From a virus, in the IMG/VR virus record IMGVR_UViG_3300034782_000041, positions 10,407 to 74,406 of that record: 64,000 bases of DNA; one strand, 5' to 3'. The notes under the pieces were generated by a model that saw only the letters and a list, made by a program, of their open reading frames with translations, did not search any database and was not told the origin of the DNA. Position 1 is the stretch's first letter. Each line of letters begins with the position of its first letter. Made by a program: the position numbers and the translations under genes. Below are positions 4,000 to 57,546 of this stretch, in pieces.

Positions 4000-4008
4000 C
4001 ACTCACCT

Positions 4009-5076
4009 CTAGTCGTCCTCGGGTGGCACAGCTTTGAGTTGTGAGCGCTTCTGAGGCGTCGCTGGCAGCTCCTGAGACTCTTCCAGTTCTTCTCCTAGCT
4101 CCTCGTAGGGCGGTTCGTACGTGTAGTCTGGCGGTGCTACTCCAGGCATTCCAGCAGCGACGAGCCCTGCACGGACCCTGTTGGACGCGACCTCGCCGTT
4201 GAGATCTGGCATAAACCCATCTGGTATACCCAGCCCGGATTGATCATCGCCGTCGTTGTTGGTTACGGGCCGATTACCACCGTTTCTACTACGAGCGAAG
4301 CCGGTGATTTCCATGACCTCTCTGGACATACGGATAGGAGTACTAGCGGTGTCCGGTGTCTGTTTCTCTTCATCAGACGGGAAATTGAGCCGTGCAGCGC
4401 CACGTTCTGTGCCGGCACTACGTACGGCATTGTCGTACGCGATGGCTGCTGCTTCGGGATCGTCGAAAACACCGAGCTGCCGCGTTGCACCATCGCGCGT
4501 AATACAAGCACGCCAGCGTTTGCCGTAGGGATGTACGCCAAAATAACCTGAGGCAGTGGCGTACGGGCCCTTTGTTGGAGGTGCTTTGTCCTCCGCGTGG
4601 CTGGCAGTGTCTTCGCTAGAATCGGGAAAGTTGAGTCGATGACGCCGTCCAACCTCACCAGCACGGACAACAGCATCGTACGCGATGGCGGCCTCTTCGG
4701 GATCGTCGAAGACACCAATGCGCTGTACTGCGCCGTCACGTACGATGCGAGCCATCCAGCGCTTGCCGTAGTTGTAGACGCCAAAGTAGCCCGAGATGGT
4801 GTCATATGGCCCCTTGCGAAACCCTGTTTCAGTTGTCTCGGCTGCCTCTGTATGCTCCCCTACAGGTTCCGTCTCGTTCGTAACTACCTCGTCGCCGGCT
4901 TTGTCGGCGTCACTGATTTTGCCGGCCTTCAGCCGCGTGAGAATCGCAGCGACCTCACCAGAAGGTGTTCGGAAGTTCAATTTCGCCCGTTCTTGTAGGT
5001 AGCTGAAGAGATCGTCCCCAATACTCACGTGCCTAGTCATGCCGGAATCCGTATCACGCCTGTTTTGGCTACACAA
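4009..5076 (-). CDS. DNA-binding protein with two tandem AP2/ERF-type (AP2-integrase-like) domains
   Basis: Two internal repeats GYFGVYNYGKRWMARIVRDGAVQRIGVFDDPEEAAIAYDAV and GYFGVHPYGKRWRACITRDGATRQLGVFDDPEAAAIAYDNAV match the AP2 consensus (YRGV..GKW.A.I.....LG.F...EEAA.AYD). Confidence 0.6.
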   Translation of the reverse strand: MCSQNRRDTDSGMTRHVSIGDDLFSYLQERAKLNFRTPSGEVAAILTRLKAGKISDADKAGDEVVTNETEPVGEHTEAAETTETGFRKGPYDTISGYFGVYNYGKRWMARIVRDGAVQRIGVFDDPEEAAIAYDAVVRAGEVGRRHRLNFPDSSEDTASHAEDKAPPTKGPYATASGYFGVHPYGKRWRACITRDGATRQLGVFDDPEAAAIAYDNAVRSAGTERGAARLNFPSDEEKQTPDTASTPIRMSREVMEITGFARSRNGGNRPVTNNDGDDQSGLGIPDGFMPDLNGEVASNRVRAGLVAAGMPGVAPPDYTYEPPYEELGEELEESQELPATPQKRSQLKAVPPEDD

Positions 5077-5620
5077 GCGATTTTTGACGGACGATTGAAA
5101 TGCGCCGAAATTTTTTTGTGGGGTGGAACGCAGACCTCATCGACAGAGAACTTTGACGCACTGTACCAACCCTAAGATCTAATGGACCTTGATCTCCATG
5201 AGATCACTCCAAAAGACACCCAAAAAAGTTAGAAGTAGAAGGGGTGTATTACCCTTGTCTGGAAGTTGCTCAAGACATTAGTATGAGCATCTAATTCGAT
5301 GTAATTATTAGTGTGTTGAGTAGGTTTTATATAAGGGTAAGGGAGGGATCTAACCCTTGTGGGTCGAACCAAACTACGTACCCGAAATTCCACGGGAATA
5401 AGTCCCTTAGAAGTCCCTTAGAAGGGGGTTAGAAGGGGTTAGAGGTAGGCAGATCCCTATTGGGGGCAGCATCCCCCCACACGCTCGGTAATCCAGGCCT
5501 TCGTAGCCTGGGTGTGTTGTCCCCCGCACTGGGGCTCGTTGTCCAACGCGGCCCACAAGCACTTCGTCAATTTCAGGTCTCCAGTGGAGACAATACTCCC
5601 CTGGTGGTAGGCTAAGGGCC
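5077..5620. promoter_or_regulatory. AT-rich divergent intergenic control region with periodic direct repeats
   Basis: Markedly lower GC than flanks; lies between divergently oriented genes (4009-5076 minus, 5621 onward plus); contains TTAGAAG x4 at 11-12 bp spacing (5401-5444) and a GGGGG-cagcat-CCCCC hairpin (5462-5477). Confidence 0.45.
5401..5444. repeat. four direct repeats with core TTAGAAG at ~11-bp (one helical turn) periodicity
   Basis: agtcccTTAGAAgtcccTTAGAAgggggTTAGAAggggTTAGAgg read directly from sequence. Confidence 0.6.
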
Positions 5621-6152
5621 ATGCCCATCATCGTCGAGATTCGAGCAGCTGAAGGCGGCCAAGACGCGCGCCTGGCAGCCCGAAGCGGTTATCGACGAGC
5701 GCCCAGGGATGGTGATCGCCCGCGTGCGGGGCGTCCAGGCCGCACAGCGGTTCCAGGATGAGCCCGGTGGCCATAGGTGGCAGCGCAAGCCCCCCATCGA
5801 GAAGCGGGGCCGCACGCATACCAGGACGGTGACGGTAGCGGTCTTGCCCGAGCCCACCGAGGTCGAGCTGCGCCTGGACTCCAAGGAGATCGAGTGGACC
5901 GCGACCCGGGGAAGCGGAGCAGGTGGTCAGCACCGGAACGTGACCGCGAGCGCCGTCCAGGTTCGGCATCGACTCTCCGGCCTCATGGTGAGGGTCGAGA
6001 GCGAGCACAGCCAGCACATGAATCGTCAGGCCGCGCTACAACTGCTCAGGGCGCGGTTGTGGGAACAGGCCCGCCAGGCAGCAGGAAAGGCCAGAGCGGC
6101 TGACAGGTCTCGATTGGGTAGCCATCGAGCTAGCATTCCGGGGACAGATTGA
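5616..6152 (+). pseudogene. class-I peptide chain release factor (RF1/RF-H-like) remnant lacking domain 1; frameshifted, PxT replaced by PPI
   Basis: Frame beginning ATG 5621 encodes MPIIVEIRAAEGGQDARLAA (matches RF1 domain-2 start ..LEIRAGTGGDEAALFA); homology then continues in the +1 frame (PEAVIDERPGMVIARVRG..GGHRWQRKPPIEKRGRTHTRTVTVAVLPE..RGSGAGGQHRNVTASAVQVRH..ESEHSQHMNRQAALQLLRARLWEQ) with a GGQ motif; about 16 aa missing at the frame junction and the last ~30 aa of RF1 absent. Confidence 0.55.
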
Positions 6153-6183
6153 CCGCAAGGTGACACGATTCTAACCTCGGTGA

Positions 6184-6516
6184 TCACGTCTCAGCGATCA
6201 GCTTCAGACGATTCATCTCAAAGTCGTAAAGTCGAATCTGACAACCGCGTTTGTACCGTGCGAGCTGGCGAAACTTGCGTACAGCTCGGGCATAGTCGTC
6301 GTAGATACACCCTTTCGACTGTTTGCCTGGGCAAGTTAGCTCCAGGTAGTACATGACCAGCACTCTACCAGTTCCTTCCCGTTTACTACAAGGCGCGCTC
6401 AACCTCGCCCGGCTAGTACTATTGCCCCCGCCAAAGTGCCTTGTTTGATAGGATAACCCGATGGCGAAGAAAGAAGCGACTGGGGTAAAAGTCCGCAAGG
6501 CCAAGAACCCGGACAT
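6184..6516 (-). CDS. hypothetical protein
   Basis: 110-aa ORF. Confidence 0.4.
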   Translation of the reverse strand: MSGFLALRTFTPVASFFAIGLSYQTRHFGGGNSTSRARLSAPCSKREGTGRVLVMYYLELTCPGKQSKGCIYDDYARAVRKFRQLARYKRGCQIRLYDFEMNRLKLIAET

Positions 6517-6778
6517 GGAATTTCAAGTCGAGTCCAAGTGGGGAATGCGCTACGTCAAGGCTGTGCACAAGCCGACGGGACTGCCAATCTCAGCACCAGC
6601 GCACGGCCTAAGTGTCTCATCGGCGGCCGAATGGATTTGTCTTATGGACACTGCGCTCGCGCGGGTAGACTTCGACGACCGCGATAAAGCAATCACGGCG
6701 ATCCAGTCAGTGAACGAGTGCTTCACGCGTAAACCGAGCTGCCCAACGGCGCTACGCAAGTGCGTGAAGAAGTGGTGA
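6461..6778 (+). CDS. hypothetical protein
   Basis: 105-aa ORF; start overlaps the divergent upstream gene. Confidence 0.4.
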   Translation: MAKKEATGVKVRKAKNPDMEFQVESKWGMRYVKAVHKPTGLPISAPAHGLSVSSAAEWICLMDTALARVDFDDRDKAITAIQSVNECFTRKPSCPTALRKCVKKW

Positions 6779-6781
6779 GTC

Positions 6782-6985
6782 GTGGAAAAAACATCGACTA
6801 GCACGCTGCTCAACTACGCTATCGAGCAAATACAAATACACGCTGAGCGGCTCGCTGAACATGAAGCTGATCCCGAGGTTGTAGAGGCCGCAGAAGCGCT
6901 GGCCGAACGGGCGAGAAGTGTACTTCGTGAAATCGCAGCGTTCGGTGACCTCCTCGGCGATGTTCTGTGGATACGACCTCTGTGA
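6782..6985 (+). CDS. hypothetical small acidic protein
   Basis: 67-aa ORF starting 4 nt after the upstream stop. Confidence 0.3.
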   Translation: MEKTSTSTLLNYAIEQIQIHAERLAEHEADPEVVEAAEALAERARSVLREIAAFGDLLGDVLWIRPL

Positions 6986-6997
6986 TAAGCTGAGCGC

Positions 6998-7264
6998 ATG
7001 AAACGTGCGCTGACCGCTGTGGTTCTCTGCGTGGCCTTCGCAGGCTGTCCCCTCTGGAATGTCGCTACAGAGAAGAAGGATGGCTGTGAGCCAACTGCGA
7101 CTCGCTGCAATGGCAACGTCGCGGAGATTTGCGGTAGCGACAAGCGGTGGGACACGAACATGGACTGCTCGGAAGTGACTGGGCCCGATGATCAGAAGTC
7201 GTTCGTCTGTTGTAAAACGCCAGACGGCCACACATGTCTACCGAGCTGCGAAGGAGAACAGTGA
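6998..7264 (+). CDS. small secreted cysteine-rich (lipo)protein
   Basis: N-terminal signal peptide MKRALTAVVLCVAFAGC (lipobox-like AFAGC); 10 Cys in 88 aa. Confidence 0.45.
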   Translation: MKRALTAVVLCVAFAGCPLWNVATEKKDGCEPTATRCNGNVAEICGSDKRWDTNMDCSEVTGPDDQKSFVCCKTPDGHTCLPSCEGEQ

Positions 7265-7470
7265 TGGCCAGATACTTTGTCTTCACCAATCACCCAGCTT
7301 ACCCGAGCCGCCGCCGTTGCTACGTAGACGCAGTTCGGTTCGGCAAAAGCCGTACGGCTACACTTGACTGGTTGCCGCCAACAGTCGGCAAGCTTCGTGA
7401 GGTCGAGGCCAAGAACAAGAAGGAAGCGATCCGCAAGAGCGGCTTGCGTTGCTCTTCGATAAAAGGATAG
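7234..7470 (+). CDS. hypothetical small protein
   Basis: 78-aa ORF. Confidence 0.3.
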   Translation: MSTELRRRTVMARYFVFTNHPAYPSRRRCYVDAVRFGKSRTATLDWLPPTVGKLREVEAKNKKEAIRKSGLRCSSIKG

Positions 7471-7691
7471 ACATGACCTACTACATCGTCCGGGATGAGC
7501 TATTCAAGCAACGCCGTGATGCTGTCAAAGCCGCACGGCGTGTCACACGCTACGAAGGCGGTGCTGCTCTGATCTTCCGAGTTCGCGACGGACGCAAGCA
7601 AGTCGATTCGATTTGTGGACACGTTCGCGGACGGTTCCTTTGCGAGCTACCCAAGAAGCACGCACGCTCGTGGCCCATGCAAGGAGCTTGA
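7449..7691 (+). CDS. hypothetical small protein
   Basis: 80-aa ORF. Confidence 0.3.
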   Translation: MLFDKRIDMTYYIVRDELFKQRRDAVKAARRVTRYEGGAALIFRVRDGRKQVDSICGHVRGRFLCELPKKHARSWPMQGA

Positions 7692-8038
7692 TGATCGAGT
7701 GGTCGGAATTCGCTGCTGACGGACGAAAGCTCGACCGAGCCAATGGCGAAGTCTGCCCATGCGGAAATCCACCTGACGCGCACGTCCATGTCTGGCGTGT
7801 CCACTGTCCATACTGCACGATTGTCTCGACGACGGGTTGGCCATACCCAGAAGGACCTGGGTTCTATCAGCTCCCCGAACACGAAGACATCTTCACGCAC
7901 CGTTGGGGCGGCGGTAACTTCATCACAGCTAACGCACTACGCAATCCTCAACAAGGATACTCGACTTGTCCTGGTTCTGGGCTTACGGTTCCCGCGGAGT
8001 TCGTTGTCGAGCACCTAATTGGAGATCGAGATGGCTGA
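7613..8038 (+). CDS. hypothetical protein (Cys/His-containing)
   Basis: 141-aa ORF; VCPCGNPPDAHVHVWRVHCPYC motif. Confidence 0.35.
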   Translation: MWTRSRTVPLRATQEARTLVAHARSLMIEWSEFAADGRKLDRANGEVCPCGNPPDAHVHVWRVHCPYCTIVSTTGWPYPEGPGFYQLPEHEDIFTHRWGGGNFITANALRNPQQGYSTCPGSGLTVPAEFVVEHLIGDRDG

Positions 8039-8630
8039 TCCAAAGCCTGAGCTGGTCAAGAAGTTCTGGGACTACATGAGCGGCTGCTACGATTCGCGGA
8101 TCGTGAAACGCTCGAACGCGTGGGAGATGAAGATCGTAGCCCGCTTCCTATCCCTGATCCGTGCGATGGACGTAGACACGTTCATGAAGAAGTTCGCCAC
8201 AACGCTTGGCAGCCGCATCTACATTCCATTCGAGCCTGGTGACCAGAACAACAGCGAATGGTCTTTGTGGGAGCAGATCGTAGTCGGTGTCCACGAACAT
8301 CAACACGTCTGGCAGTACGACCATGAGGGTCGAACGTTCATGTGGAAGTACCTGCTGCGGTCGTCGGGCCGCGCACACTACGAAGCCGATGCCTATCGAT
8401 GCAACATCGAGATGCACTACTGGCGCTACGGCAAGATGCCTGACGCACATCGATTGGCTGAGATGCTGAAGGCCTACAAGTGCAACGCAACGGACATCGC
8501 GGTTACAGAAAAGCAGTTCAATCTGAGCATCAAAACGATTGAGACGGGCGCAATCGTCAACGACGCCAGTCGTAAGGCGATTCGCTGGTTAGAGCATAAC
8601 GCACCTACACTGCGCGAAGCGCGCAGCTAG
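8019..8630 (+). CDS. hypothetical protein
   Basis: 203-aa ORF; His-rich stretch VGVHEHQHVWQYDHEG. Confidence 0.45.
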   Translation: MEIEMADPKPELVKKFWDYMSGCYDSRIVKRSNAWEMKIVARFLSLIRAMDVDTFMKKFATTLGSRIYIPFEPGDQNNSEWSLWEQIVVGVHEHQHVWQYDHEGRTFMWKYLLRSSGRAHYEADAYRCNIEMHYWRYGKMPDAHRLAEMLKAYKCNATDIAVTEKQFNLSIKTIETGAIVNDASRKAIRWLEHNAPTLREARS

Positions 8631-8692
8631 ATCTAAGCAGAATCTAGCTGGCGCACGCCGCCGGTAGCGTTTTCCCGCCATTCAATGTTAGA

Positions 8693-10465
8693 GTGTTGTT
8701 GATCGCGTCCGCGATCTCAGGATTGCCGATGACAACACTCAAAAACATCATCCGTCTTACTGCTGCTGCCCCTGGCGTAACCACAGTCGCGCATGGGCTC
8801 AACATCGACGGCGTCAGTGTACGTCCCGACAAGTTGGAGACCTCGACCAGTGGGTCGTTTACGGTCTCAGCTGACGCAACGAACCTCACCGTGATCAACC
8901 AGGGTGGCGTAAGCGCTGATATCGACATCTACGTCGAGCACTGGCATACCATCGAGCGCGTGTTCGGCGCAGCAGGGACGACCGAACTGGCACCGCAACC
9001 GTTTCAACCCGGCGCGGGAAGTGGCGGTGCTGATCCTGGGGTCAACACGGTGCGGTTCGCGGATGATGGTGCACTCATCAACGTCTACGTCGATGGTGTC
9101 AACGGCAGCGATGACAACGATGGGCTAACCGAAGCAACTGCACTACAAACCATTCCTACTGTCTACCGCAAGTTCCCAATGATCACGTTGGAAAACTCTC
9201 GCGTCCGTGTGCATCTCGCAGGTGTTGGCGGCTTCGGTGCGAATGCGACAGCTCCACTCACATACGAGATCTGGACGATCTTGATTGGTGGGGGGGAAGG
9301 CTATCCTCGCGGCAACACCTACCAGTACATGGGACCCGAGATGGTTCCTGCAACGCCGACAACTGGCCCTGCGATTGCTGCGCTAGACAATCCTCCAGCC
9401 GTACAAATAGCTGGCGGTAGCGCGTCAGCTGGCGGTACACGGTCTGTGCGGTTCGATTTCACCGGAGCTGCTCCAGGTTGGACCGTCGATGATCTGCAAG
9501 GCAAGTATCTTCGGATCACGCGTGGTGGCGTGAAGGTCACGTGGGAGATGCCTATCTCGCGCAACACGGCAGATACAATCACCGTTCGCGTGACCGCGGT
9601 GGATACCATCATCCTCAACACCGACATAGCTGAGATCGTCGAGCCAGGAGCCAAGCTCGAAACATCTGGCGGAATTCCGACACCAGCGGTTTGCGGCGAT
9701 GGAGGATACGCGAACGCAAGCGAATCGTTGGGTGCATCGTTCGTCAGATGTAGCTTCCCTGGCGGCTTGTCGATCCTACGCGCGCAGTTTGCAACCTTCG
9801 ATCGCTGCAACCTCGACGAGGTTGGATGGGGGTGCTTCACCGACTCAAGTGTCATCAACTTCTTTGGCTGCACTGGAAGGTCTTTTTCCTTCATCGGAAC
9901 GAGTGTGGGTACGTATTTTTCGTGTATGCCGATCGAGACCAGCGCAGCGGATCCTATCCCAGGAAACAACCGTAAATTCGGTATCGAGTTGGCTTCGTGT
10001 GGTCAGTACGGACGGATAGAAATGCTCAGTCGAGGCAATCCAAACCATTTTCATGTGTGGGTTGGCCTCGCCATGGATTACCCAGAACTCTATGATGGAT
10101 TTGGCATCTTTGTACGTCACGAATCGCAACTCGTCTTGCATCGACGTGGTGTTGCCACCGGATGGCAAAAGCCTGCTATCCAAGGTCAGATCGATGACAC
10201 TGGGCCTGCCATCTTTGTTGTAGATGGAGGGCGGGCGTTGTTGCAAAGCAACGTGACTACTCCAGGTGTCGTCTCTGTCTACTGCAATGGTGGCGGGAAT
10301 CCTCTTCACATCGATGACGGCGCCGGGCTTTCCTGCGACTACGGTAACGGTGTTGGTGATTGGGAGGAAGCAGTAGGATACGACGGCTGTCTGTGGCAAG
10401 CACCGGCAGCTGGACTCAACGCTGACCCGGTCTCTGTCATTCGCGTCAACAAGTACAAGAACTAG
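8693..10465 (+). CDS. putative tail fiber / receptor-binding protein (N-terminal domain A)
   Basis: 590 aa; Gly/Thr/Val-rich beta-rich composition; N-terminal ~100 aa (..IYVEHWHTIERVFG..LAPQPFQPGAG) paralogous to the N-terminus of 10769-11479. Confidence 0.5.
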   Translation: MLLIASAISGLPMTTLKNIIRLTAAAPGVTTVAHGLNIDGVSVRPDKLETSTSGSFTVSADATNLTVINQGGVSADIDIYVEHWHTIERVFGAAGTTELAPQPFQPGAGSGGADPGVNTVRFADDGALINVYVDGVNGSDDNDGLTEATALQTIPTVYRKFPMITLENSRVRVHLAGVGGFGANATAPLTYEIWTILIGGGEGYPRGNTYQYMGPEMVPATPTTGPAIAALDNPPAVQIAGGSASAGGTRSVRFDFTGAAPGWTVDDLQGKYLRITRGGVKVTWEMPISRNTADTITVRVTAVDTIILNTDIAEIVEPGAKLETSGGIPTPAVCGDGGYANASESLGASFVRCSFPGGLSILRAQFATFDRCNLDEVGWGCFTDSSVINFFGCTGRSFSFIGTSVGTYFSCMPIETSAADPIPGNNRKFGIELASCGQYGRIEMLSRGNPNHFHVWVGLAMDYPELYDGFGIFVRHESQLVLHRRGVATGWQKPAIQGQIDDTGPAIFVVDGGRALLQSNVTTPGVVSVYCNGGGNPLHIDDGAGLSCDYGNGVGDWEEAVGYDGCLWQAPAAGLNADPVSVIRVNKYKN

Positions 10466-19822: not shown

Positions 19823-19975
19823 CTGCCTCTCCTTCGTCCCCTCGGGGACCGTCAGGAGTATGACGCTACGCGGGCGGGAATATTCGATTCGCAGACGCGA
19901 TTTTTCTTACACGACAATCAACAACGATTCTGCACGGTTAGGACTCTATTGCGTTGGGTTAGCCGCGGAAGGTAC

Positions 19976-20059
19976 AGGAGTCGAACCTGATCCCGTCAGG
20001 GACGCACCGGTTAGCAGCCGGGCTTCGCGCCACCACGAATTTACCTTCCAGGGCGAAAG
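19976..20059 (-). tRNA. tRNA-Ser(GCU), type II
   Basis: Hand fold of reverse complement: acceptor GGAAGGT/ACCTTCC, anticodon loop CUGCUAA, long variable arm, T-loop TTCGACT. Confidence 0.6.
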
Positions 20060-20069
20060 CGGAAGCGGA

Positions 20070-20152
20070 GGGAATCGAACCCCCAAGGCATATGCTCGCT
20101 CGGGTTCAAGCCGAGTGCCGTCACCTGTCGGCTAGCGCTTCCAAAAGTGGTT
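20070..20152 (-). tRNA. tRNA-Ser(UGA), type II
   Basis: Acceptor GGAAGCG/CGCTTCC, anticodon stem CTCGG/CCGAG loop CUUGAAC, long variable arm, T-loop TTCGATT. Confidence 0.6.
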
Positions 20153-20286
20153 CGGAGAACGATGCGCTCGGTTTGTTTAGCGTGTTGCCATTACACCACC
20201 GGTAACCCGGGTTGGAGTCGAACCAACATCTCTCGCTCCTCAAGCGAAGTAACCGAATGCTTTACTACCGAACCGGCGGAGAACGA

Positions 20287-20372
20287 GTGAGTCGAACACT
20301 ATGCGCAGCTGCGCACGCACCGGTTTCCAACCGGGCTCAGGTCCACACCTGATTCATTCTCCAACTGCATGC
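20287..20372 (-). tRNA. tRNA-Ser(GGA), type II
   Basis: Acceptor GGAGAAT/GTTCTCC (G-U at 7-66), anticodon loop UUGGAAA, variable-arm hairpin GCGCAG/CTGCGC. Confidence 0.5.
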
Positions 20373-20405
20373 GGAAGGCAGAGGTCTCGATCCCCAAGCT
20401 TGCGC

Positions 20406-20954
20406 TCACGCTGCTTTCGAGGCAGGCCCAGGCCCCGCCTGGTTTACCTTCCATGTCCATGCACGCCACGCCTCGGGCATGCCGGGCGTCCACGTCACTG
20501 TGATGTGTACGTCAGGCAGCTTCTTTGGCTTCACCGGCTTCGATCGTAGTCGCATGCCGGCTTGTTGTGGCGTTCGTCCACCCTTCTGTTGGTTGCACGC
20601 TACGCAACAGATGACTACGTTCTCCCAGGTCGTTTGCCCGCCGAGCGTTCGCGGCACAACGTGATCATAGGTAGCCTCCAGACGTGGCACTTGATCTCCA
20701 CAGTACTGGCACCTTCCGTGATCGCGTGTGTAGACGTTCTCGCGTGAGAACTTCACGACACGCTTCTTTCGTCGCATCCGCGTGATGAATCGAACGACGG
20801 ATGGCATCTTGATCGAGAACGTCACCGACCGGATGTTTCTGTCGGTGTATTCATCCACGACCTCTACCTTGCCAAGGAAGAGCAAAGTGATTGCACGTTG
20901 CCAGTGGATCCGCGCCACGGGCAAGTAGGACTGATCGAGAACCAACGTGTCCAT
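20406..20954 (-). CDS. HNH homing endonuclease
   Basis: CQYCGDQVP..DHVVPRTLGGQTTWENVVICCVACNQQKG (HNH with CxxC/CxxC zinc site); inserted inside the tRNA array. Confidence 0.75.
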   Translation of the reverse strand: MDTLVLDQSYLPVARIHWQRAITLLFLGKVEVVDEYTDRNIRSVTFSIKMPSVVRFITRMRRKKRVVKFSRENVYTRDHGRCQYCGDQVPRLEATYDHVVPRTLGGQTTWENVVICCVACNQQKGGRTPQQAGMRLRSKPVKPKKLPDVHITVTWTPGMPEAWRAWTWKVNQAGPGPASKAA

Positions 20955-20981
20955 GACTCGCTCCTTTCTGGTTGCTGTCCG

Positions 20982-21061
20982 TGCTCAGAGAGGGACTCGA
21001 ACCCTCACGCCGAAGCATCCGCTTTTGAGACGGACGTGTATGCCTATTCCACCATCTGAGC
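20982..21061 (-). tRNA. tRNA-Leu(CAA), type II
   Basis: Acceptor GCTCAGA/TCTGAGC, anticodon stem TCCGT/GCGGA loop CUCAAAA, 11-nt variable arm, T-arm GAGGG-TTCGAGT-CCCTC. Confidence 0.6.
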
Positions 21062-21067
21062 TTATCG

Positions 21068-21146
21068 TGCCCGAGGAGAGATTTGAACTCTCACGCCGAA
21101 GCAGCTGGGTTTAGGCCAGCCGTGTATGCCCTTCCACCACTCGGGC
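21068..21146 (-). tRNA. tRNA-Leu(UAA), type II
   Basis: Acceptor GCCCGAG/CTCGGGC, anticodon stem GCTGG/CCAGC loop CCUAAAC, T-loop TTCAAAT. Confidence 0.6.
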
Positions 21147-21150
21147 GTCG

Positions 21151-21224
21151 TACCACCGGAGAGACTCGAACTCTCAACACCTCGGTCCTTAGCCGAGACC
21201 CTCTTCCAATTGGGGCACGGTGGC
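21151..21224 (-). tRNA. type-I (short variable arm) tRNA with anticodon AAG (leucine CUU family), A73
   Basis: Acceptor GCCACCG/CGGTGGT (G1-U72), D-arm CCCC-AATTGGAAGA-GGG, anticodon stem CTCGG/CCGAG loop CUAAGGA, 5-nt variable region. Confidence 0.45.
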
Positions 21225-21226
21225 AG

Positions 21227-21297
21227 CTCCGGCTCAGGGACTCGAACCCCGATACCACGATCCAGAGTCGTGGGTCCTACCGTTAGACGAAGCCGGA
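21227..21297 (-). tRNA. tRNA-Gln(CUG)
   Basis: Acceptor TCCGGCT/AGCCGGA, anticodon stem CACGA/TCGTG loop CUCUGGA. Confidence 0.55.
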
Positions 21298-21301
21298 ATG
21301 G

Positions 21302-21372
21302 TTCGGGGTCTGGGACTCGAACCCAGATTGCTCGGGTCAAAGCCGAGTATCTTGCCATTGGATCAACCCCGA
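21302..21372 (-). tRNA. tRNA-Gln(UUG)
   Basis: Acceptor TCGGGGT/ACCCCGA, anticodon stem CTCGG/CCGAG loop CUUUGAC. Confidence 0.55.
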
Positions 21373-21376
21373 GTAG

Positions 21377-21450
21377 AGCGGACGATGGGACTCGAACCCA
21401 TACGACGAGGTTGGAAGCCTCGCATGCTGGCCGTTGAACATCACGCCCGC
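21377..21450 (-). tRNA. tRNA-Gly(UCC)
   Basis: Acceptor GCGGGCG/CGTCCGC, anticodon stem CGAGG/CCTCG loop CUUCCAA. Confidence 0.55.
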
Positions 21451-21454
21451 TTTG

Positions 21455-21525
21455 TGCCCCCGGAAGGACTCGAACCCTCGTAGCCTGATTAAAGGTCAGG
21501 TATGACACCACTTCATCACGGAGGC
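21455..21525 (-). tRNA. tRNA-Lys(UUU)
   Basis: Acceptor GCCTCCG/CGGGGGC, anticodon stem CCTGA/TCAGG loop CCUUUAA. Confidence 0.55.
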
Positions 21526-21528
21526 GAG

Positions 21529-21602
21529 TACCTGTGGTCAGACTCGAACTGACACTGTACGCGTTCTGAGCGCGCTCCCTCTTCCAATTGGGGTACACAG
21601 GC
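21529..21602 (-). tRNA. type-I (short variable arm) tRNA with anticodon CAG (leucine CUG family), A73
   Basis: Acceptor GCCTGTG/CACAGGT, same D-arm as the AAG tRNA (CCCC-AATTGGAAGA-GGG), anticodon stem GCGCG/CGCGT loop CUCAGAA. Confidence 0.45.
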
Positions 21603-21727
21603 AAAAGATGCAGCCCATCGCCCGATGGAGACCTTCTCTCCAATCCCTTAGAGCCCGTGAATCGATCCACTAGGGACGGTCACTACAACCGCCCTGCCGA
21701 AACTTCGACTAGCTGTGGCCGCATCAG

Positions 21728-21800
21728 TACCGGTCCTGAGAATCGAACTCAGCGCGTCCTGCTTGTAAGGCAGGTCCCACCCCCAGGTGAGCTGACCGGC
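21728..21800 (-). tRNA. tRNA-Val(UAC)
   Basis: Acceptor GCCGGTC/GACCGGT, anticodon stem CCTGC/GCAGG loop CUUACAA, T-arm CTGAG-TTCGATT-CTCAG. Confidence 0.5.
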
Positions 21801-21804
21801 GTGG

Positions 21805-21875
21805 TCGCAGCGGAGGGAATCGGACCCTCACGGTCTCGCTTATGAGACGAGCCGCCTAACCCGTAGGTCGCTGCG
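21805..21875 (-). tRNA. tRNA-Met(CAU), elongator-type, T-loop UCCGAUU
   Basis: Acceptor CGCAGCG/CGCTGCG, anticodon stem CTCGT/GCGAG loop CUCAUAA; could alternatively be Ile2 (lysidine) tRNA. Confidence 0.5.
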
Positions 21876-21878
21876 TGG

Positions 21879-21950
21879 TAGCGGGGGCTGGAATTGCACC
21901 AGCGTGGTCAGGCTTATGAGACCTGACAGGTAACTAGCAACCTCCCCGCA
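21879..21950 (-). tRNA. second CAU-anticodon tRNA (Met/fMet/Ile2) with non-canonical T-loop UGCAAUU and 1-72 mismatch
   Basis: Acceptor TGCGGGG/CCCCGCT (U1.U72), anticodon stem CAGGT/GCCTG loop CUCAUAA, T-arm GCTGG-TGCAATT-CCAGC. Confidence 0.4.
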
Positions 21951-21954
21951 AAAG

Positions 21955-22022
21955 CGCCTCCATCAGGAATCGAACCCGAGTAGCTGCTTTAGAAGAGCAG
22001 CGCCTCATCCATGAGTAGAGGC
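21955..22022 (-). tRNA. tRNA-Arg(UCU)
   Basis: Acceptor GCCTCTA/TGGAGGC, anticodon stem CTGCT/AGCAG loop CUUCUAA; compact D-arm. Confidence 0.5.
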
Positions 22023-22025
22023 AAG

Positions 22026-22093
22026 TACCACTGGACGGAGTCGAACCATCTCTTCAGGTTTAGGAGACCCGAATCTGTTCCACCAGCAGTGGC
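22026..22093 (-). tRNA. tRNA-Arg(CCU)
   Basis: Acceptor GCCACTG/CAGTGGT, anticodon stem CGGGT/ACCTG loop CUCCUAA. Confidence 0.5.
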
Positions 22094-22097
22094 ATCG

Positions 22098-22166
22098 TGC
22101 CTCTACGAGGAATCGAACCTCGTCTTCCGAGTTCGTAGCCCGGAGTCCGGCTCCACCGGCAGAGGC
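22098..22166 (-). tRNA. tRNA-Arg(ACG)
   Basis: Acceptor GCCTCTG/TAGAGGC, anticodon stem CCGGG/CTCGG loop CUACGAA. Confidence 0.5.
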
Positions 22167-22173
22167 GAATCAG

Positions 22174-22245
22174 AGCCCAAGGACAGAATCGAACTGTCAT
22201 CTCTCGCGTACCGGGCGAGTGCTCTCTCCATTGAGCTACGAGGGC
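22174..22245 (-). tRNA. tRNA-Thr(GGU) (two acceptor-stem mismatches, C33)
   Basis: D-arm GCTC-AATGGA-GAGC, anticodon stem CTCGC/GCGAG loop CCGGUAC, T-arm GACAG-TTCGATT-CTGTC; acceptor GCCCTCG/CTTGGGC has mismatches at 5-68 and 6-67. Confidence 0.4.
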
Positions 22246-22249
22246 GTCG

Positions 22250-22321
22250 TGGACCGCCGGGGAATCGAACCCCGATCTTCTGGGTGCAAACCAGATGTGT
22301 TCCCGTTATCACTAGCAGCCC
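22250..22321 (-). tRNA. tRNA-Ala(UGC) with G3-U70
   Basis: Acceptor GGGCTGC/GCGGTCC, D-arm GTG-ATAACGGGAA-CAC, anticodon stem TCTGG/CCAGA loop UUUGCAC, A73. Confidence 0.55.
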
Positions 22322-22325
22322 TTAG

Positions 22326-22345
22326 GCGGGCCTTCCACCCGCTCG
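22326..22345. repeat. intergenic hairpin repeat copy 1 (GCGGGCCTTCCACCCGCTCG)
   Basis: 20-nt motif with GCGGG/CCCGC stem, identical copy at 22662-22681; both sit in tRNA spacers. Confidence 0.55.
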
Positions 22346-22418
22346 TGGACACCGTCGGGATCGAACCGACCACATCCGGCTTGCAAGGCCAGATCGCCCC
22401 CTTGGTACATGGGTGCCC
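22346..22418 (-). tRNA. second tRNA-Ala(UGC)-like copy with G3-U70 (weak D-stem)
   Basis: Acceptor GGGCACC/GGTGTCC, anticodon stem CTGGC/GCCGG loop CUUGCAA, T-loop TTCGATC. Confidence 0.4.
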
Positions 22419-22585
22419 ATAACGACGAGGAACTAACCCCGCCGACACGTTTTTGTCTCCTCCTCGAACAGAGGCGTCCCTCCTCAGAGGCCAATACTGG
22501 AAGCTCCCAGCAAGTCCGCAGCTAGCTAAGCCCGACTACGCTGTCTGTTCGCCCAGCAGCAAGGCAGGTACGTGCTCCTGCATTG

Positions 22586-22657
22586 TGGACCAACTGGGAA
22601 TCGAACCCAGATCTCTGCCGTGCGAAAGCAGCGTGTTCCCTTTATCACTATTGGCCC
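22586..22657 (-). tRNA. tRNA-Ala(CGC) with G3-U70
   Basis: Acceptor GGGCCAA/TTGGTCC, D-arm GTG-ATAAAGGGAA-CAC, anticodon stem CTGCT/GGCAG loop UUCGCAC. Confidence 0.55.
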
Positions 22658-22661
22658 TTGT

Positions 22662-22681
22662 GCGGGCCTTCCACCCGCTCG
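22662..22681. repeat. intergenic hairpin repeat copy 2 (GCGGGCCTTCCACCCGCTCG)
   Basis: Identical to 22326-22345. Confidence 0.55.
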
Positions 22682-22704
22682 GAGACGCGTCCGTCTCTTG
22701 GCCG

Positions 22705-22777
22705 TGCCACTCCTCGGTAACGCTCCGAGCCCTCCGGCTTTTCAGGCCGGCGCTTCCACTTGGTTAGCTTGGGTGGC
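22705..22777 (-). tRNA. tRNA-Phe(GAA) with non-canonical T-loop AGCGUUA
   Basis: Acceptor GCCACCC/GAGTGGC (one mismatch), D-stem GCT/AGC, anticodon stem CCGGC/GCCGG loop CUGAAAA, T-arm CTCGG-AGCGTTA-CCGAG. Confidence 0.45.
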
Positions 22778-22788
22778 AAACGGATTTG

Positions 22789-22859
22789 TAGCCCAGCTAG
22801 GAGTTGAACCTAGATCACTCGCTTATAAGGCAAGCGCCCTGCCGTTGTGCTACTGGGCC
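22789..22859 (-). tRNA. tRNA-Ile(UAU)
   Basis: Acceptor GGCCCAG/CTGGGCT (G1-U72), anticodon stem CTTGC/GCGAG loop CUUAUAA, T-arm CTAGG-TTCAACT-CCTAG. Confidence 0.4.
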
Positions 22860-22931
22860 AACAAATGCGGGCCTCGCACCCGCTCGGAGGTGACGGTTTA
22901 GGGCTTCGCTTTCGCGCCACACCTCTAGCCG

Positions 22932-23003
22932 CGGAGCTGACGGGAATTGAACCCGCCTCGCCGGTTAGACAGACCGGTAGCCTCACCAGATGCTTACAGC
23001 TCC
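22932..23003 (-). tRNA. tRNA-Asp(GUC)
   Basis: Perfect acceptor GGAGCTG/CAGCTCC, anticodon stem CCGGT/ACCGG loop CUGUCUA, T-loop TTCAATT, G73. Confidence 0.6.
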
Positions 23004-23045
23004 AAACGCGAGCGTGCTCCCTTGTTACACCACGGCGCGGCGACC

Positions 23046-23069
23046 GCAACCGACAGGAATCGAACCTGC
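23046..23069 (-). other. orphan tRNA 3-prime half (acceptor strand + T-arm) without room for a 5-prime half
   Basis: ACAGG-AATCGAA-CCTGC T-arm signature preceded by 7-nt acceptor-like strand; only 28 nt before the next tRNA. Confidence 0.3.
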
Positions 23070-23097
23070 ACTTCCCGCTCTAACTATGACTTCTTGG

Positions 23098-23169
23098 GGT
23101 GAGCGAGAAGAATCGAACTTCCATCACGCGGGCCACAACCGCGCGCTCTGCCATTGAGCTACGCCCACC
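23098..23169 (-). tRNA. tRNA-His(GUG) with G-1 and C73
   Basis: G(-1)+GTGGGCG/CGCTCAC acceptor, D-arm GCTC-AATGGC-AGAGC, anticodon stem CGCGG/CCGCG loop UUGUGGC. Confidence 0.65.
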
Positions 23170-23174
23170 ATCAG

Positions 23175-23245
23175 TTCCCCCGGACAGAGTTGCGCTGTCA
23201 TCTCTCGCTTATCAAGCGAGTGCTCTCCTGTTGAGCTACAGGGGA
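23175..23245 (-). tRNA. tRNA-Ile(GAU) with non-canonical T-loop CGCAACU
   Basis: Acceptor TCCCCTG/CGGGGGA, D-arm GCTC-AACAGG-AGAGC, anticodon stem CTCGC/GCGAG loop UUGAUAA, T-arm GACAG-CGCAACT-CTGTC. Confidence 0.5.
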
Positions 23246-23249
23246 TCAG

Positions 23250-23321
23250 TCGGAGTGGCTGGGATCGAACCAGCGATCTCATGGTCCCGAACCATGCGCG
23301 ATACCGCTTCGCTACACCCCG
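23250..23321 (-). tRNA. tRNA-Pro(CGG)
   Basis: Acceptor CGGGGTG/CACTCCG, D-stem GCGA/TCGC, anticodon stem CATGG/CCATG loop UUCGGGA. Confidence 0.55.
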
Positions 23322-23322
23322 G

Positions 23323-23395
23323 TCGGAGCGACAGGACTCGAACCTGCATGCTCTTGGTCCCAAACCAAGCGGGTTGCCAAATACCCTACGCTCCG
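23323..23395 (-). tRNA. tRNA-Pro(UGG)
   Basis: Perfect acceptor CGGAGCG/CGCTCCG, D-stem GGGT/ACCC, anticodon stem CTTGG/CCAAG loop UUUGGGA. Confidence 0.6.
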
Positions 23396-23399
23396 GTTG

Positions 23400-23471
23400 T
23401 GACCCCGCCGAGAATCGAACTCGGATTGCTGGCTTGAAAGACCAGCTGCTTGACCGTTAGCAGACGAGGCC
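23400..23471 (-). tRNA. tRNA-Glu(UUC)
   Basis: Acceptor GGCCTCG/CGGGGTC (two G-U), D-stem TGCT/AGCA, anticodon stem CTGGT/GCCAG loop CUUUCAA. Confidence 0.5.
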
Positions 23472-23515
23472 AGAGGACGTGTTTTCCCTCGTCACTGGGA
23501 ATGCTTGCTTTGCGG

Positions 23516-23586
23516 AGGCTTCGGTGGGAGTCGAACCCACGATACAGGTTTTGCAGACCCGTGCCTTGCCACTTGACTACGAAGCC
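23516..23586 (-). tRNA. tRNA-Cys(GCA)
   Basis: Perfect acceptor GGCTTCG/CGAAGCC, anticodon stem CGGGT/ACCTG loop CUGCAAA, T-arm GTGGG-TTCGACT-CCCAC. Confidence 0.55.
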
Positions 23587-23588
23587 AG

Positions 23589-24098
23589 TCAGGTCAGGGG
23601 CATCCCTCTGTACTCCGCTACGGCACGAAGGAACGCCTCCCCCCTATCTCCAGTGTGCTCCTGTCGATGGCAATTGGAACACAGGAGTTCGCATTTCAGA
23701 ACTTCCTTCTTGACTACAGCCCACGCTCGGTTGCTGTTCTCGCTGATCTGAAAGTCCTTCTTACCGTTGTGGTGGAACTCAAAGGCTGCTGGACTCCCTG
23801 AGAAACCACAGCGTTGACACTTTCCGCCAAGGAGGGTTATAGCCGCAACCTTCACCCGATATCGCCTAATCCTAGATCGACAGGTGTAGCATACATCCCC
23901 TTTCCCGGGGACTAGCTTCCCTGAGCACAACCTACACCTAGTCGGCTTACGTCTTATATCGTGGATGTGGATCTTCTTCCGATTGTTAGCCCCAAATGGG
24001 GAGCAGGAAACGCAGTACCTACGACTCGACAGGTTCCGCACCTTCCCGTCTATGACTATTCGAGTAGGAAACTCTTCGTGGCACTTGGCGCATTCCAT
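23589..24098 (-). CDS. HNH endonuclease (second copy inside tRNA array)
   Basis: CQRCGF..FEFHHNGKKD..LLCSNCHRQEH (HNH with Cys4 zinc site); stop codon 2 nt from the tRNA-Cys 5-prime end. Confidence 0.6.
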   Translation of the reverse strand: MECAKCHEEFPTRIVIDGKVRNLSSRRYCVSCSPFGANNRKKIHIHDIRRKPTRCRLCSGKLVPGKGDVCYTCRSRIRRYRVKVAAITLLGGKCQRCGFSGSPAAFEFHHNGKKDFQISENSNRAWAVVKKEVLKCELLCSNCHRQEHTGDRGEAFLRAVAEYRGMPLT

Positions 24099-24156
24099 AG
24101 CTCTAAGGTACCTGAGAGTACGATCCTGCGTTAGTCAACGAGGGCCTTTCCTTTGA

Positions 24157-24230
24157 CTACCAGTAGCTCCCTCGATCCGACTTGAACGGATAACCCCCTG
24201 GTTAACGGCCAGGTGCTGCTACCAATTGAG
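24157..24230 (-). tRNA. tRNA-Asn(GUU)
   Basis: Perfect acceptor TCCCTCG/CGAGGGA, anticodon stem CCTGG/CCAGG loop CCGUUAA (C33), T-loop TTCAAGT. Confidence 0.5.
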
Positions 24231-24234
24231 CTAC

Positions 24235-24306
24235 GAGGGATCAGAGCTGGTGGAGGGAATCGAACCCCCAACCTACTGCTTACAAGGCAGTTGCACTTCC
24301 CTTGTG
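24235..24306 (-). tRNA. tRNA-Thr(UGU)
   Basis: Perfect acceptor GCTGGTG/CACCAGC, D-stem GCAC/GTGC, anticodon stem ACTGC/GCAGT loop CUUGUAA. Confidence 0.6.
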
Positions 24307-24313
24307 CTACACC

Positions 24314-24399
24314 AGCGAGCTAGTGGGGAACGGTGGAATCGAACCACATGCCCAAATGGGAAACGGTTTACAGCCGCTCGCCGGACCATCCAGCCTTAT
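24314..24399 (-). tRNA. tRNA-Tyr(GUA), type II
   Basis: Acceptor GGGGAGC/GTTCCCC, anticodon stem AGCGG/CCGTT loop CUGUAAA, variable-arm hairpin CCCA-TT-TGGG, T-loop TTCGATT; D-region irregular. Confidence 0.45.
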
Positions 24400-24403
24400 G
24401 ACG

Positions 24404-24474
24404 CTCCCCGCGGTGCCTCTGGAAGGAATTGCACCCTCATCAACGGGGTAAGAACCCGGTATTCTCCTGTTGAA
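24404..24474 (-). tRNA. tRNA-Lys(CUU) with non-canonical T-loop UGCAAUU
   Basis: Perfect acceptor GCCTCTG/CAGAGGC, D-stem GTTC/GAAT, anticodon loop UUCUUAC, T-arm GAGGG-TGCAATT-CCTTC. Confidence 0.4.
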
Positions 24475-24487
24475 CTACAGAGGCAAG

Positions 24488-24575
24488 ATGATCCTCCGAT
24501 GAGAAGGATCATGTACTGTCTTCGTCATCGTCAGCTATTCGATTACCAGAGGCTCGATTCACAAGCTATCGAGCC
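24488..24575. other. two strong 8-bp hairpins in a tRNA-free spacer of the array
   Basis: ATGATCCT-ccgatgaga-AGGATCAT (24488-24512) and GGCTCGAT-tcacaagct-ATCGAGCC (24551-24575). Confidence 0.45.
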
Positions 24576-24598
24576 AACATTCCAGAGAACGTTCGCGG

Positions 24599-24670
24599 AG
24601 CGGGCGACGGGAATCGAACCCGCCAGGGCCTGCCTGGCAGACAGGTGTCACGCCTTGTGACTTCACCCGC
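24599..24670 (-). tRNA. tRNA-Gly(GCC)
   Basis: Acceptor GCGGGTG/CGCCCGC, D-stem GTCA/TGAC, anticodon stem CCTGT/GCAGG loop CUGCCAG. Confidence 0.55.
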
Positions 24671-24686
24671 GTATTTCTTTCAGTGG

Positions 24687-24757
24687 AGCCGACGGACAGA
24701 GTCGAACTGTCATCCCCGCTTTACGAAAGCGGTGCACTACCGTTGTGCTACGAAGGC
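24687..24757 (-). tRNA. tRNA-Thr(CGU) (two acceptor-stem mismatches)
   Basis: D-stem GCAC/GTGC, anticodon stem CCGCT/AGCGG loop UUCGUAA, T-arm GACAG-TTCGACT-CTGTC; acceptor GCCTTCG/CGTCGGC mismatched at 4-69 and 5-68. Confidence 0.4.
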
Positions 24758-24771
24758 AGGTCTATGAATGG

Positions 24772-24838
24772 CGGGCCGCCGAGGAATCGAACCCCGCTGG
24801 CCGGATTTGGAGCCCAGCCTGATCCCAGATCGCAACCC
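24772..24838 (-). tRNA. tRNA-Trp(CCA)
   Basis: Acceptor GGGTTGC/GCGGCCC (two G-U), anticodon stem CTGGG/TCCGG loop CUCCAAA, G73; compact D-arm. Confidence 0.45.
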
Positions 24839-25060
24839 AGAAACCAAGAAAGCCAGGGAGACCTTTGTCTGCCCTGGCTTCCTAGTGTGGTCATGTTCTC
24901 TAGTTAGCCAGGGCGTGTCCTCCAGAGATTGGCCTGAATATCGTACGAGGACACGACGCTAAACGCACATGTACCCAGGCCCAACCCTTTGGGCTTTGGT
25001 TCGTGGTGCGTTTGGGTCGCGGCTAACATCACTCTCAGAATACAGGTACTCTACAAACTG

Positions 25061-57462: not shown

Positions 57463-57473
57463 CGATCCTCCGG

Positions 57474-57546
57474 TACACCCGGAGGGAATCGAACCCCCAC
57501 CTTGCAGCTCCACAGACTGCACGCTCGGCCTTCGAGCTACGGGTGT
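57474..57546 (-). tRNA. isolated tRNA with anticodon GUG (His-like) but no G-1
   Basis: Perfect acceptor ACACCCG/CGGGTGT, D-arm GCTC-GAAGGCC-GAGC, anticodon stem GCAGT/GCTGC loop CUGUGGA, T-arm GGGGG-TTCGATT-CCCTC, A73. Confidence 0.45.

Follow-up and report, generated by a model that had tools for sequence, protein, structure and literature searches.

Release factor 1 (RF1) carries an N-terminal helical domain, domain 1, which contacts RF3 and the L11 stalk, and in Escherichia coli prfB, the gene for the class-I factor RF2, the programmed +1 shift site lies at codon 26, within domain 1. The prfB frameshift motif is CTT_TGA_C with an upstream stimulator of the Shine-Dalgarno (SD) type (PMC3711429, PMC12421855), and all CUU-stop cases among the +1 entries of RECODE are prfB according to the PRFect paper (PMC10885494); a reviewer of the 2006 RF-H paper set RF2 against RF1 on the point of the frameshift switch (PMC1586002). 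The searchable literature gave no earlier account of an RF1-like or phage release factor whose gene is frameshifted, which is absence of evidence only. The gene considered here lies at positions 5621-6152 of a 64,000-nt stretch of viral DNA (IMG/VR record IMGVR_UViG_3300034782_000041, positions 10,407 to 74,406; the window in what follows), and is very likely a pseudogene: a phage-borne "short RF1" that was inactivated not long ago and would have lost its function. It belongs to an unnamed, distinct and widespread family of ~220-residue RF1-type proteins consisting of domains 2-4 only. This domain-1-less family, found on Myxococcota chromosomes and in the transfer RNA (tRNA) and transfer-messenger RNA (tmRNA) islands of jumbo phages, is probably expressed through a prfB-like programmed +1 frameshift (GGAGG-NNN-CUU-UGA/UAG/UAA).

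Three-frame translation of 5600-6153, read together with the list of open reading frames (ORFs), places two release-factor pieces, 5621-5761 and 5709-6152, in frames offset by +1. Homology of the first piece to the family is confined to 5625-5667, and what follows is an out-of-frame read-on to the TGA at 5759-5761. In the +1 frame, no stop occurs from 5616 onwards until TGA 6150-6152; its earliest start codon, ATG 5709, gives a product of 147 residues. This frame holds GGHRWQRKPPIEKRGRTHTRTVTVAVLPE and RGSGAGGQHRN; both frames are open where they overlap, over 5616-5761. The 147-residue product matches Pfam RF-1 (PF00472, E=2.4e-21), with GGQ inside that domain as in a class-I release factor, and the C-terminal part of PCRF (PCRF positions 153-194, E=3.6e-07), while the 46-residue product weakly matches PCRF positions 101-120. 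The first frame matches positions 3-19 (E=3e-7) of a family protein hidden Markov model (HMM; 223 positions, built from 116 frameshift-corrected relatives), and the +1 frame matches positions 40-185 (E=2e-60, 191.6 bits). In the family DNA HMM, model nt 8-50 correspond to 5625-5667 (E=1e-10) and nt 118-537 to 5685-6104. Neither the ORF list nor the DNA HMM gives any release-factor similarity in the ~540 nt upstream of ATG 5621.

The preliminary description of this DNA, made from its letters and ORF list, had thus been right to see a release-factor-derived gene that lacks domain 1, with its halves offset by +1, PPI in place of the RF1 PxT tripeptide, GGQ intact and no in-frame stop at the junction (5668-5684). 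It had also called for a check on an indel error. The exact 147-residue protein is present on two public contigs, and the second of these (L001; JGI sample 3300036975, 1087 nt) is identical across the gene, break included, with a single-nucleotide polymorphism (SNP) upstream of the gene as its sole difference. Because this contig carries the identical break, a sequencing or assembly indel is very unlikely, and the frame break is a property of the DNA. Megablast of window positions 4000-9000 against 50,697 phage records gave no match.

A protein search with the window gene returned more than 2000 matches, the best of which are 50-69% identical, 170-239 residues long and made up of the PCRF tail and the RF-1 domain only. 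Full-length members have 218-229 residues. They begin with M..IIVEIRAAEGGxDAKLLV, which is the start of RF domain 2 (3-6 residues precede IVEIRAAEGG), and end with ...RGDKRRTIRxQDGxVxDHxTGxxW...RGxW. A profile built from 18 members aligns to RF1 residues 88-311 in Thermotoga maritima and 112-333 in E. coli at 220 bits, compared with 143 bits for RF2 and 79 bits for PrfH. The AlphaFold (AF2) model (predicted local distance difference test, pLDDT, 87.3) superposes on ribosome-bound RF1 with a template-modelling (TM) score of 0.89 and a root-mean-square deviation of 2.6 A; for PrfH the TM score is 0.67. Most of the RF1 decoding elements are retained, namely GGxDA at the helix tip (GGxEA in RF1), the Gln of RWQR and the HTS motif.

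The absence of domain 1 is thus ancestral to the family rather than a lesion of the window copy, and the idea of a captured prfA fragment has to be given up: the gene lies in a distinct short RF1-type family in which that absence is normal, and it misses the prfA cutoffs. Alignment to the RF1, RF2, RF-H and ArfB families, another check that had been proposed, puts RF1 closest. NCBIfam models rank the family proteins prfA > prfB > prfH > ArfB, with every score far under the curated cutoffs. At the position of PxT the family has PPT in 74/124 and PPN in 22/124 cases, so that PPI, correctly noticed in the window copy, is peculiar to this copy and not a family trait.

The DNA of the family was examined in 80 bacterial loci from species-representative genomes, mostly Myxococcota and including the isolates Minicystis rosea, Archangium gephyra and Pyxidicoccus fallax, and in 80 of 156 matching IMG/VR contigs, many of them 100-480 kb long. 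The spacing from AEGG to GGHRWQR is 3n+1 nt in 64 of the 69 analysable bacterial loci and 59 of the 66 analysable viral ones (123/135), mostly 169 nt. In those 123 loci, frame 0 ends with ...CGG AGG NNN CTT [stop] C, 81 nt past AEGG (105 nt in two loci), and the stop is TGA in 88, TAG in 31 and TAA in 4, preceded by CTT without exception. Counted over distinct genes, CTT stands at the shift site in 117/117, although it makes up just 9.1% of the other Leu codons in these genes; 3 nt upstream of CTT there is an SD-like element in 96/117 (exactly CGGAGG in 65), and the base after the stop (+4) is C in 96/117. Skipping one base after CTT (+1) gives an uninterrupted protein of 218-238 residues in 124 loci. 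The AlphaFold model puts the split inside one folded domain, in the loop that follows helix 15-34, which makes explanations other than ribosomal frameshifting unattractive. About three-quarters of the family proteins in databases carry nonsense N-termini that are +1-frame readings of DAKLLVEEQLAIY...; most entries are garbled or truncated at the N-terminus because gene callers miss the shift.

Read as sequence, the family cassette is the prfB cassette element for element: SD-like stretch, 3-nt spacer, CUU and stop. The suggestion in the preliminary description of a +1 shift like that of prfB thus fits the intact relatives, with their CUU-stop cassette, and fails for the window copy, from which the cassette has been deleted. 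Two other routes past the stop were rejected. Re-initiation is disfavoured by sequence logic, as CTTTGA offers only TTG as a start-like triplet, in the wrong frame, and CTTTAG offers none; transcriptional slippage would have only three consecutive T's to act on.

An intact short RF1 would be an RF1-type class-I release factor of domains 2, 3 and 4 only, its gene written in two frames: an ORF1 of ~37 codons ending in ...CGG AGG NNN CUU UGA/UAG/UAA C, and, in the +1 frame, the remainder of the protein. On the analogy of prfB, the ribosome would pause at the poorly terminated internal stop, where pairing of the SD-like GGAGG with 16S ribosomal RNA may aid the shift. The P-site tRNA-Leu would then slip from CUU to UUU in competition with termination, and decoding would go on in the +1 frame. 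Full-length factor would on this analogy be made only when release-factor activity at the cassette stop is limiting, that is, when termination is slow. At UAG and UAA cassettes, a product that reads those codons as RF1 does could act back on its own synthesis. At UGA cassettes, the commonest kind, the switch would instead report host RF2 activity. Since all three stops are used, strict autoregulation by the product is not obvious, and across the family loci there is no correlation between the cassette stop codon and a PPT or PPN tripeptide.

Several relatives depart from this arrangement. Three of them (L079, from an Armatimonadota metagenome-assembled genome, and the IMG/VR contigs L087, 466 kb, and L088, 183 kb) are single-frame members with an in-frame TGA or TAG at the shift site, at ~6130-6140 in each; the stop replaces a D/S codon and follows CTG, CTA or TAT rather than CTT (e.g. 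RLRRL-stop-LEQVD). Judging from these sequences, their expression would need stop-codon readthrough, not frameshifting. A distinct clade (RPGEGG..., ...KSQHxNR; L060, L064, L070, L071, L143, L160 and L161) has a conserved in-frame TGA, mostly TGA-C, ~12 codons downstream of the usual shift position and ~45-52 codons into the gene, with two TGAs in L160 and L161 (33-39% GC). Regulatory readthrough is one possible reason, and in the low-GC members TGA may instead be recoded. Additionally, tRNA-Leu(AAG)-like genes lie 2-2.6 kb upstream of the CUU-stop frameshift gene in L086 (3395-3472), L103 (4375-4449) and L090 (3980-4057). Their anticodon loop is enlarged to 9 nt in the minimum-free-energy fold (C[U/C]UAAGCAA), and ARAGORN labels two of them with the 4-base anticodon "taag"; AAG reads CUU. 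Enlarged anticodon loops are typical of +1 frameshift-suppressor tRNAs. These genes have weak folds and may be degenerate tRNAs.

The window copy is best read against its closest relatives, L162 (a 61.5-kb JGI contig) and L163 (a 39-kb ENA contig). Their intact gene reads MKTCIVEIRAAEGG.DAKQLV.EQLAIY.RLA.RRGL and stop, then SL.VVDQRPG..., with the junction GGC CGG AGG GGT CTT TAG C. From AEGG to the core motif the window copy measures 118 nt, compared with 169 nt in relatives, which is 51 nt short and still 3n+1. The preliminary description had put the gap at about 16 residues relative to RF1; the gap is real, and against the true family its size is 17 codons. In a three-way MAFFT alignment of the DNA, 36 nt (KQLVTEQLAIYS) and 15 nt (GGTCTTTAGCCTTGA) are missing, and the SD-like GGAGGGG of the relatives has become CGAAGCGG. 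The unmatched parts of the models, protein HMM positions 20-39 and DNA HMM nt 51-117, include the cassette, and the lost stretch is most of helix alpha5 together with the entire cassette (SD-like GGAGG, spacer, CTT and stop). CTT-stop, in-frame stops and SD-like elements are all absent from window 5668-5684. Each loss is divisible by three, so the +1 offset of the ancestral gene persists without a means of bridging it, and as the cassette is gone, the window copy cannot use a prfB-like shift.

The preliminary description overlooked a second loss, that of the family's last ~38-44 codons, which encode domain 4. HMM positions 186-223 are unmatched in any frame, as are DNA HMM nt 538-669. This part holds strands E192-197, E202-205 and E211-213 of the model, which complete the domain 2/4 sheet, and the invariant GSGxRGDKxRT...V.DH..G residues. 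The MAFFT alignment hinted at a second frameshift (a 14-nt deletion) with residual domain-4 homology in the +1 frame (FRGQIDRKVTRF and stop, 6136-6174). This was rejected: local alignment of that stretch to L162 and L163 is no better than to shuffles (p 0.27 and 0.90), and the protein and DNA HMMs are blind to it. The remaining core has changes at four columns that are at least 95% conserved (V to A, HTS to HTR, P to L and ERSQ to EHSQ; family mean 0.44, maximum 3), and 11 invariant columns are missing altogether. The codon-reading Thr has become Ile, so that the tripeptide is not the PxT of RF1. Tested end to end, the window copy covers positions 3-19 and 40-185 of the 223-position profile strongly and lacks 20-39 and 186-223; by this measure it is a family member by descent and not an intact one. 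In a separate relative, P0058 (193 residues, on a contig of 8980 nt), helix alpha5 and the cassette are likewise deleted and the frames are fused in one ORF (MGNVIVEVRAAEG joined to DQRPGILVF...); the same region was lost as in the window copy, but in P0058 the frame is restored. Coordinates of the features in the window are collected in Table 1.

Table 1. Release-factor remnant and tRNA genes in the window
Feature	Position	Strand	Description
ORF-A	5621-5761	+	46 codons; ATG 5621, stop TGA 5759-5761; frame reads MPIIVEIRAAEGGQDARLAA
ORF-A, homologous part	5625-5667	+	Start Met, first beta-strand of RF domain 2, AEGGxDA motif (MPIIVEIRAAEGGQDA)
Junction	5668-5684	+	17 nt compared with 68 nt in relatives; net loss 51 nt (17 codons)
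Homologous core, +1 frame	5685-6104	+	Remaining domain 2 (GGHRWQRKPPIEKRGRTHTRT), domain 3 with GGQ, long connecting helix
Gene-finder ORF	5709-6152	+	147 residues, protein P0001; JGI name "peptide chain release factor 1"
PPI tripeptide	5790-5798	+	CCC CCC ATC, at position of RF1 PxT
GGQ catalytic motif	5922-5930	+	GGT GGT CAG; intact
Non-homologous tail	6105-6152	+	...SRLGSHRASIPGTD and stop; stands in place of the family's last ~40 codons
tRNA array	19965-24845	minus	32 tRNA genes (ARAGORN), most amino acids, no suppressor anticodon
Extra tRNA	23175-23245		Rfam match, not called by ARAGORN
Solitary second tRNA-His	57472-57546	minus	

Deletions that kept the frame, 51 nt in total, took out the cassette and most of helix alpha5 without altering the +1 offset, and the 3' ~40 codons, encoding domain 4, have been exchanged for unrelated sequence, with the codon-reading Thr now Ile. 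The two halves could presumably no longer be joined, the decoding superdomain would not be expected to fold even if they were, and no functional release factor would result. Of the two options in the preliminary description, decay is therefore the better one, given the loss of the cassette, helix alpha5 and domain 4 and the changes in conserved columns.

Several observations weigh against these readings. For the family, it is the conservation of the sequence and the example of prfB that make the case for +1 frameshifting. In the window copy, the retained core scores 194 bits, compared with a family mean of 206.5 +/- 10, which is the 14th-lowest value of 117; GGQ is unchanged, and the ORF in the +1 frame is open over 179 codons. 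The ratio of nonsynonymous to synonymous substitution rates (dN/dS) is ~0.22 between the window and L163, compared with 0.11 between L162 and L163, with dS saturated (1.35-1.64) and the window-L162 pair not computable. Pseudogenes are, moreover, usually purged fast from phage genomes. As far as the sequence goes, a 147-residue product from ATG 5709 or a rare spontaneous +1 shift in 5668-5684 may also occur. The core score within the family range, the intact GGQ and the dN/dS of ~0.22 are the reasons for reading the inactivation as recent; the last of these fits recent inactivation without proving it.

It is improbable, if somewhat less so than the other alternatives, that the 147-residue ORF at 5709-6152 is expressed alone as a neo-functionalised truncated GGQ protein, a codon-independent peptidyl-tRNA hydrolase like ArfB/ICT1 or a termination modulator. 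The ORF is open, starts with ATG and keeps GGQ in a well-conserved domain 3, its core score lies in the family range, and the same allele occurs on two contigs. However, ATG 5709 is a point change of an internal codon (Ile in L163, Leu in L162), and it has no properly spaced SD, the only purine-rich stretch (GGG) abutting the ATG itself. Of the domain 2/4 beta-sheet only half would be present in the product, which would have neither helix alpha5 nor the three C-terminal strands and, judging from the model, would be unlikely to fold. Its tail lacks the basic C-terminal helix of ArfB, the ArfB model matches only around GGQ (41 bits against a cutoff of 100), and the architecture recurs in no other family member among the 240 loci and proteins inspected.

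Still harder to sustain is an internally shortened full-length factor that is still made, through an unconventional +1 frameshift or transcriptional slippage within 5668-5684. The halves are exactly +1 apart, the frames are open across the junction and the ancestral gene relied on +1 shifting, but the junction, GCA GCC CGA AGC GGT TAT CGA, has no slippery codon of the CUU/CCC/UUU type before a stop or hungry codon, no homopolymer and no SD-like stimulator; 123/123 intact family cassettes use CTT-stop, and the joined product would still lack helix alpha5 and domain 4. An error of sequencing or assembly in a gene that is really intact has next to nothing to recommend it: indels are possible in metagenome assemblies, but the separate contig is the same through the whole gene, the difference from relatives is a 51-nt loss with a 3' replacement rather than a 1-nt indel, and a +1 offset is the normal state in the family.

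An inactivated short RF1 gene would sit here in phage DNA. The window encodes a fusion of PolA with a uracil-DNA glycosylase (UDG), SNF2-type and other helicases, a primase-like protein, a PD-(D/E)XK nuclease, a Dam-type methylase and many ORFans. The release-factor remnant (5616-6152) has a G+C content of 67%, compared with 56-60% in most 2-kb windows elsewhere and a family-gene median of 65%, which is compatible with acquisition from a high-GC source of the myxobacterial type. Contrary to the preliminary description, the gene is not next to the tRNA array, which is 13.8 kb away on the opposite strand. The association with tRNAs that it proposed is loose in the window and does exist among phage members of the family: 49/80 viral loci have tRNA or tmRNA genes within 6 kb and 34/80 have at least 7 tRNAs, compared with 16/80 and 2/80 bacterial loci. 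Outside Myxococcota chromosomes the family is found in many large or jumbo phages, where the gene is very often inside the tRNA islands and on the same strand. In L083 it lies inside a 34-tRNA array with a tmRNA gene (6669-7020) directly after it, and tmRNA genes also adjoin it in L092 (5218-5576), L129 (4558-4917) and L156. The family looks like part of the "translation tool-kit" of huge phages, among whose genes RF1 and RF2 have been listed without detail (PMC7162821).

No protein-coding neighbour is conserved: in all-against-all clustering of ORFs within +/-6 kb of 161 loci, no neighbour family occurs in more than 11 loci and none is RtcB-sized. A Pfam scan of 20 large window ORFs, part of those in the window, gave no RtcB, so that the likeness to RF-H drawn in the preliminary description finds no support in the window ORFs tested or around the 161 related loci. 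An operon partner (RtcB, IF3 or others) was accordingly rejected. An IF3 (infC) homologue lies 1-3 kb upstream of the intact gene in L162 (6897-7319) and L163 (8327-8779) only, and was not detected in the window or the other 160 loci. L162 and L163 are phage-like contigs that have several other genes in common with the window, at 28-62% amino-acid identity.

A scan for sigma-70 promoters and intrinsic terminators over window 5000-6600 gave nothing, and Rfam over the whole window found tRNAs only. The ~540 nt upstream of the remnant (5077-5620) are non-coding, without an Rfam match or a sigma-70-like promoter, and contain the tandem direct repeats AAGTCCCTTAG x2 (5400-5421) and GGGGTTAGA x2 (5425-5443). 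Before them, on the minus strand (4009-5076), is a 355-residue ORF with two repeats of a weak AP2-like DNA-binding domain (PF00847, E=1.6e-4, under cutoff) and a homologue in L163. Further away, an 868-residue ORF (30633-33239, minus) has a Major Vault Protein shoulder domain (PF11978, E=3e-30) and a vault repeat (PF17795), which is unusual in a phage. The family-A DNA polymerase at 43732-46746 has an N-terminal domain of the uracil-DNA-glycosylase superfamily fused to its 3'-5' exonuclease and polymerase domains.

The window locus itself is ordinary, and the family-level recoding signal is an interesting by-product, exposed by a decayed member. For the window, the lead of an exotic PPI-type rescue factor is removed, and the phage appears to carry a dead gene. 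For the family, the CUU-stop +1 switch would not be unique to prfB, as the same cassette recurs at another position in an RF1-type paralogue, in more than 100 independent genomes and with three stop codons. If true, prfB would be joined by a second release-factor gene, placed independently of it, that senses how efficiently termination proceeds; no earlier case would be known from the RF1 lineage or from viruses. It would offer a natural experiment on release-factor sensing, by autoregulation through UAG/UAA or by cross-regulation by RF2 through UGA, and a handle on why large phages bring their own termination factor beside tRNA arrays and tmRNA. Cultured myxobacteria exist in which the family cassette could be tested.

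Among known systems, ArfB, ICT1 and C12orf65 are the most distant. They share the GGQ domain with the family but lack the domain 2/4 decoding module that the family has, and the family lacks their type of C-terminal tail; the window copy scores 40.9 bits with the ArfB model NF006718 (cutoff 100), over residues 83-118 only, ~35 residues around GGQ. PrfH (RF-H), which goes with RtcB2, is closer in its size of ~200 residues, its GGQ and its restriction to domains 2-4. However, the TM score is well below that for RF1, the family keeps the RF1 decoding residues where PrfH has them replaced, and its loci lack RtcB or any other conserved neighbour. With TIGR03072 (cutoff 166.65) the window copy reaches 69.4 bits and the relatives 72-89. 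RF1 (prfA) itself is the best match in sequence and structure, with GGQ, a PxT-like tripeptide that is mostly PPT, the RWQR Gln, HTS, and GGxDA for GGxEA. Unlike RF1, the whole family is without domain 1 (~105 residues) and its gene needs a frameshift, and the window copy additionally has PPI and is without helix alpha5 and domain 4. Scores with the prfA equivalogs TIGR00019/NF001859 (cutoffs 423/400) are 132-138 bits for a conceptual fusion of the window halves and 192-198 for intact relatives. In its probable mode of expression the family is closest to prfB. The window copy has no cassette at all, and the intact genes differ from prfB in encoding a domain-1-less RF1-type paralogue rather than RF2, in the place of the shift site, near codon 37 in the domain-2 loop that follows helix alpha5, and in using UGA (88), UAG (31) and UAA (4) where prfB almost always uses UGA. 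What these relatives have in common with prfB are the elements, their order and their spacing, GGAGG (or GGGGG/GGGAG), 3 nt, an invariant CUU, a stop and usually C at +4, with the remainder of a class-I release factor following in the +1 frame.

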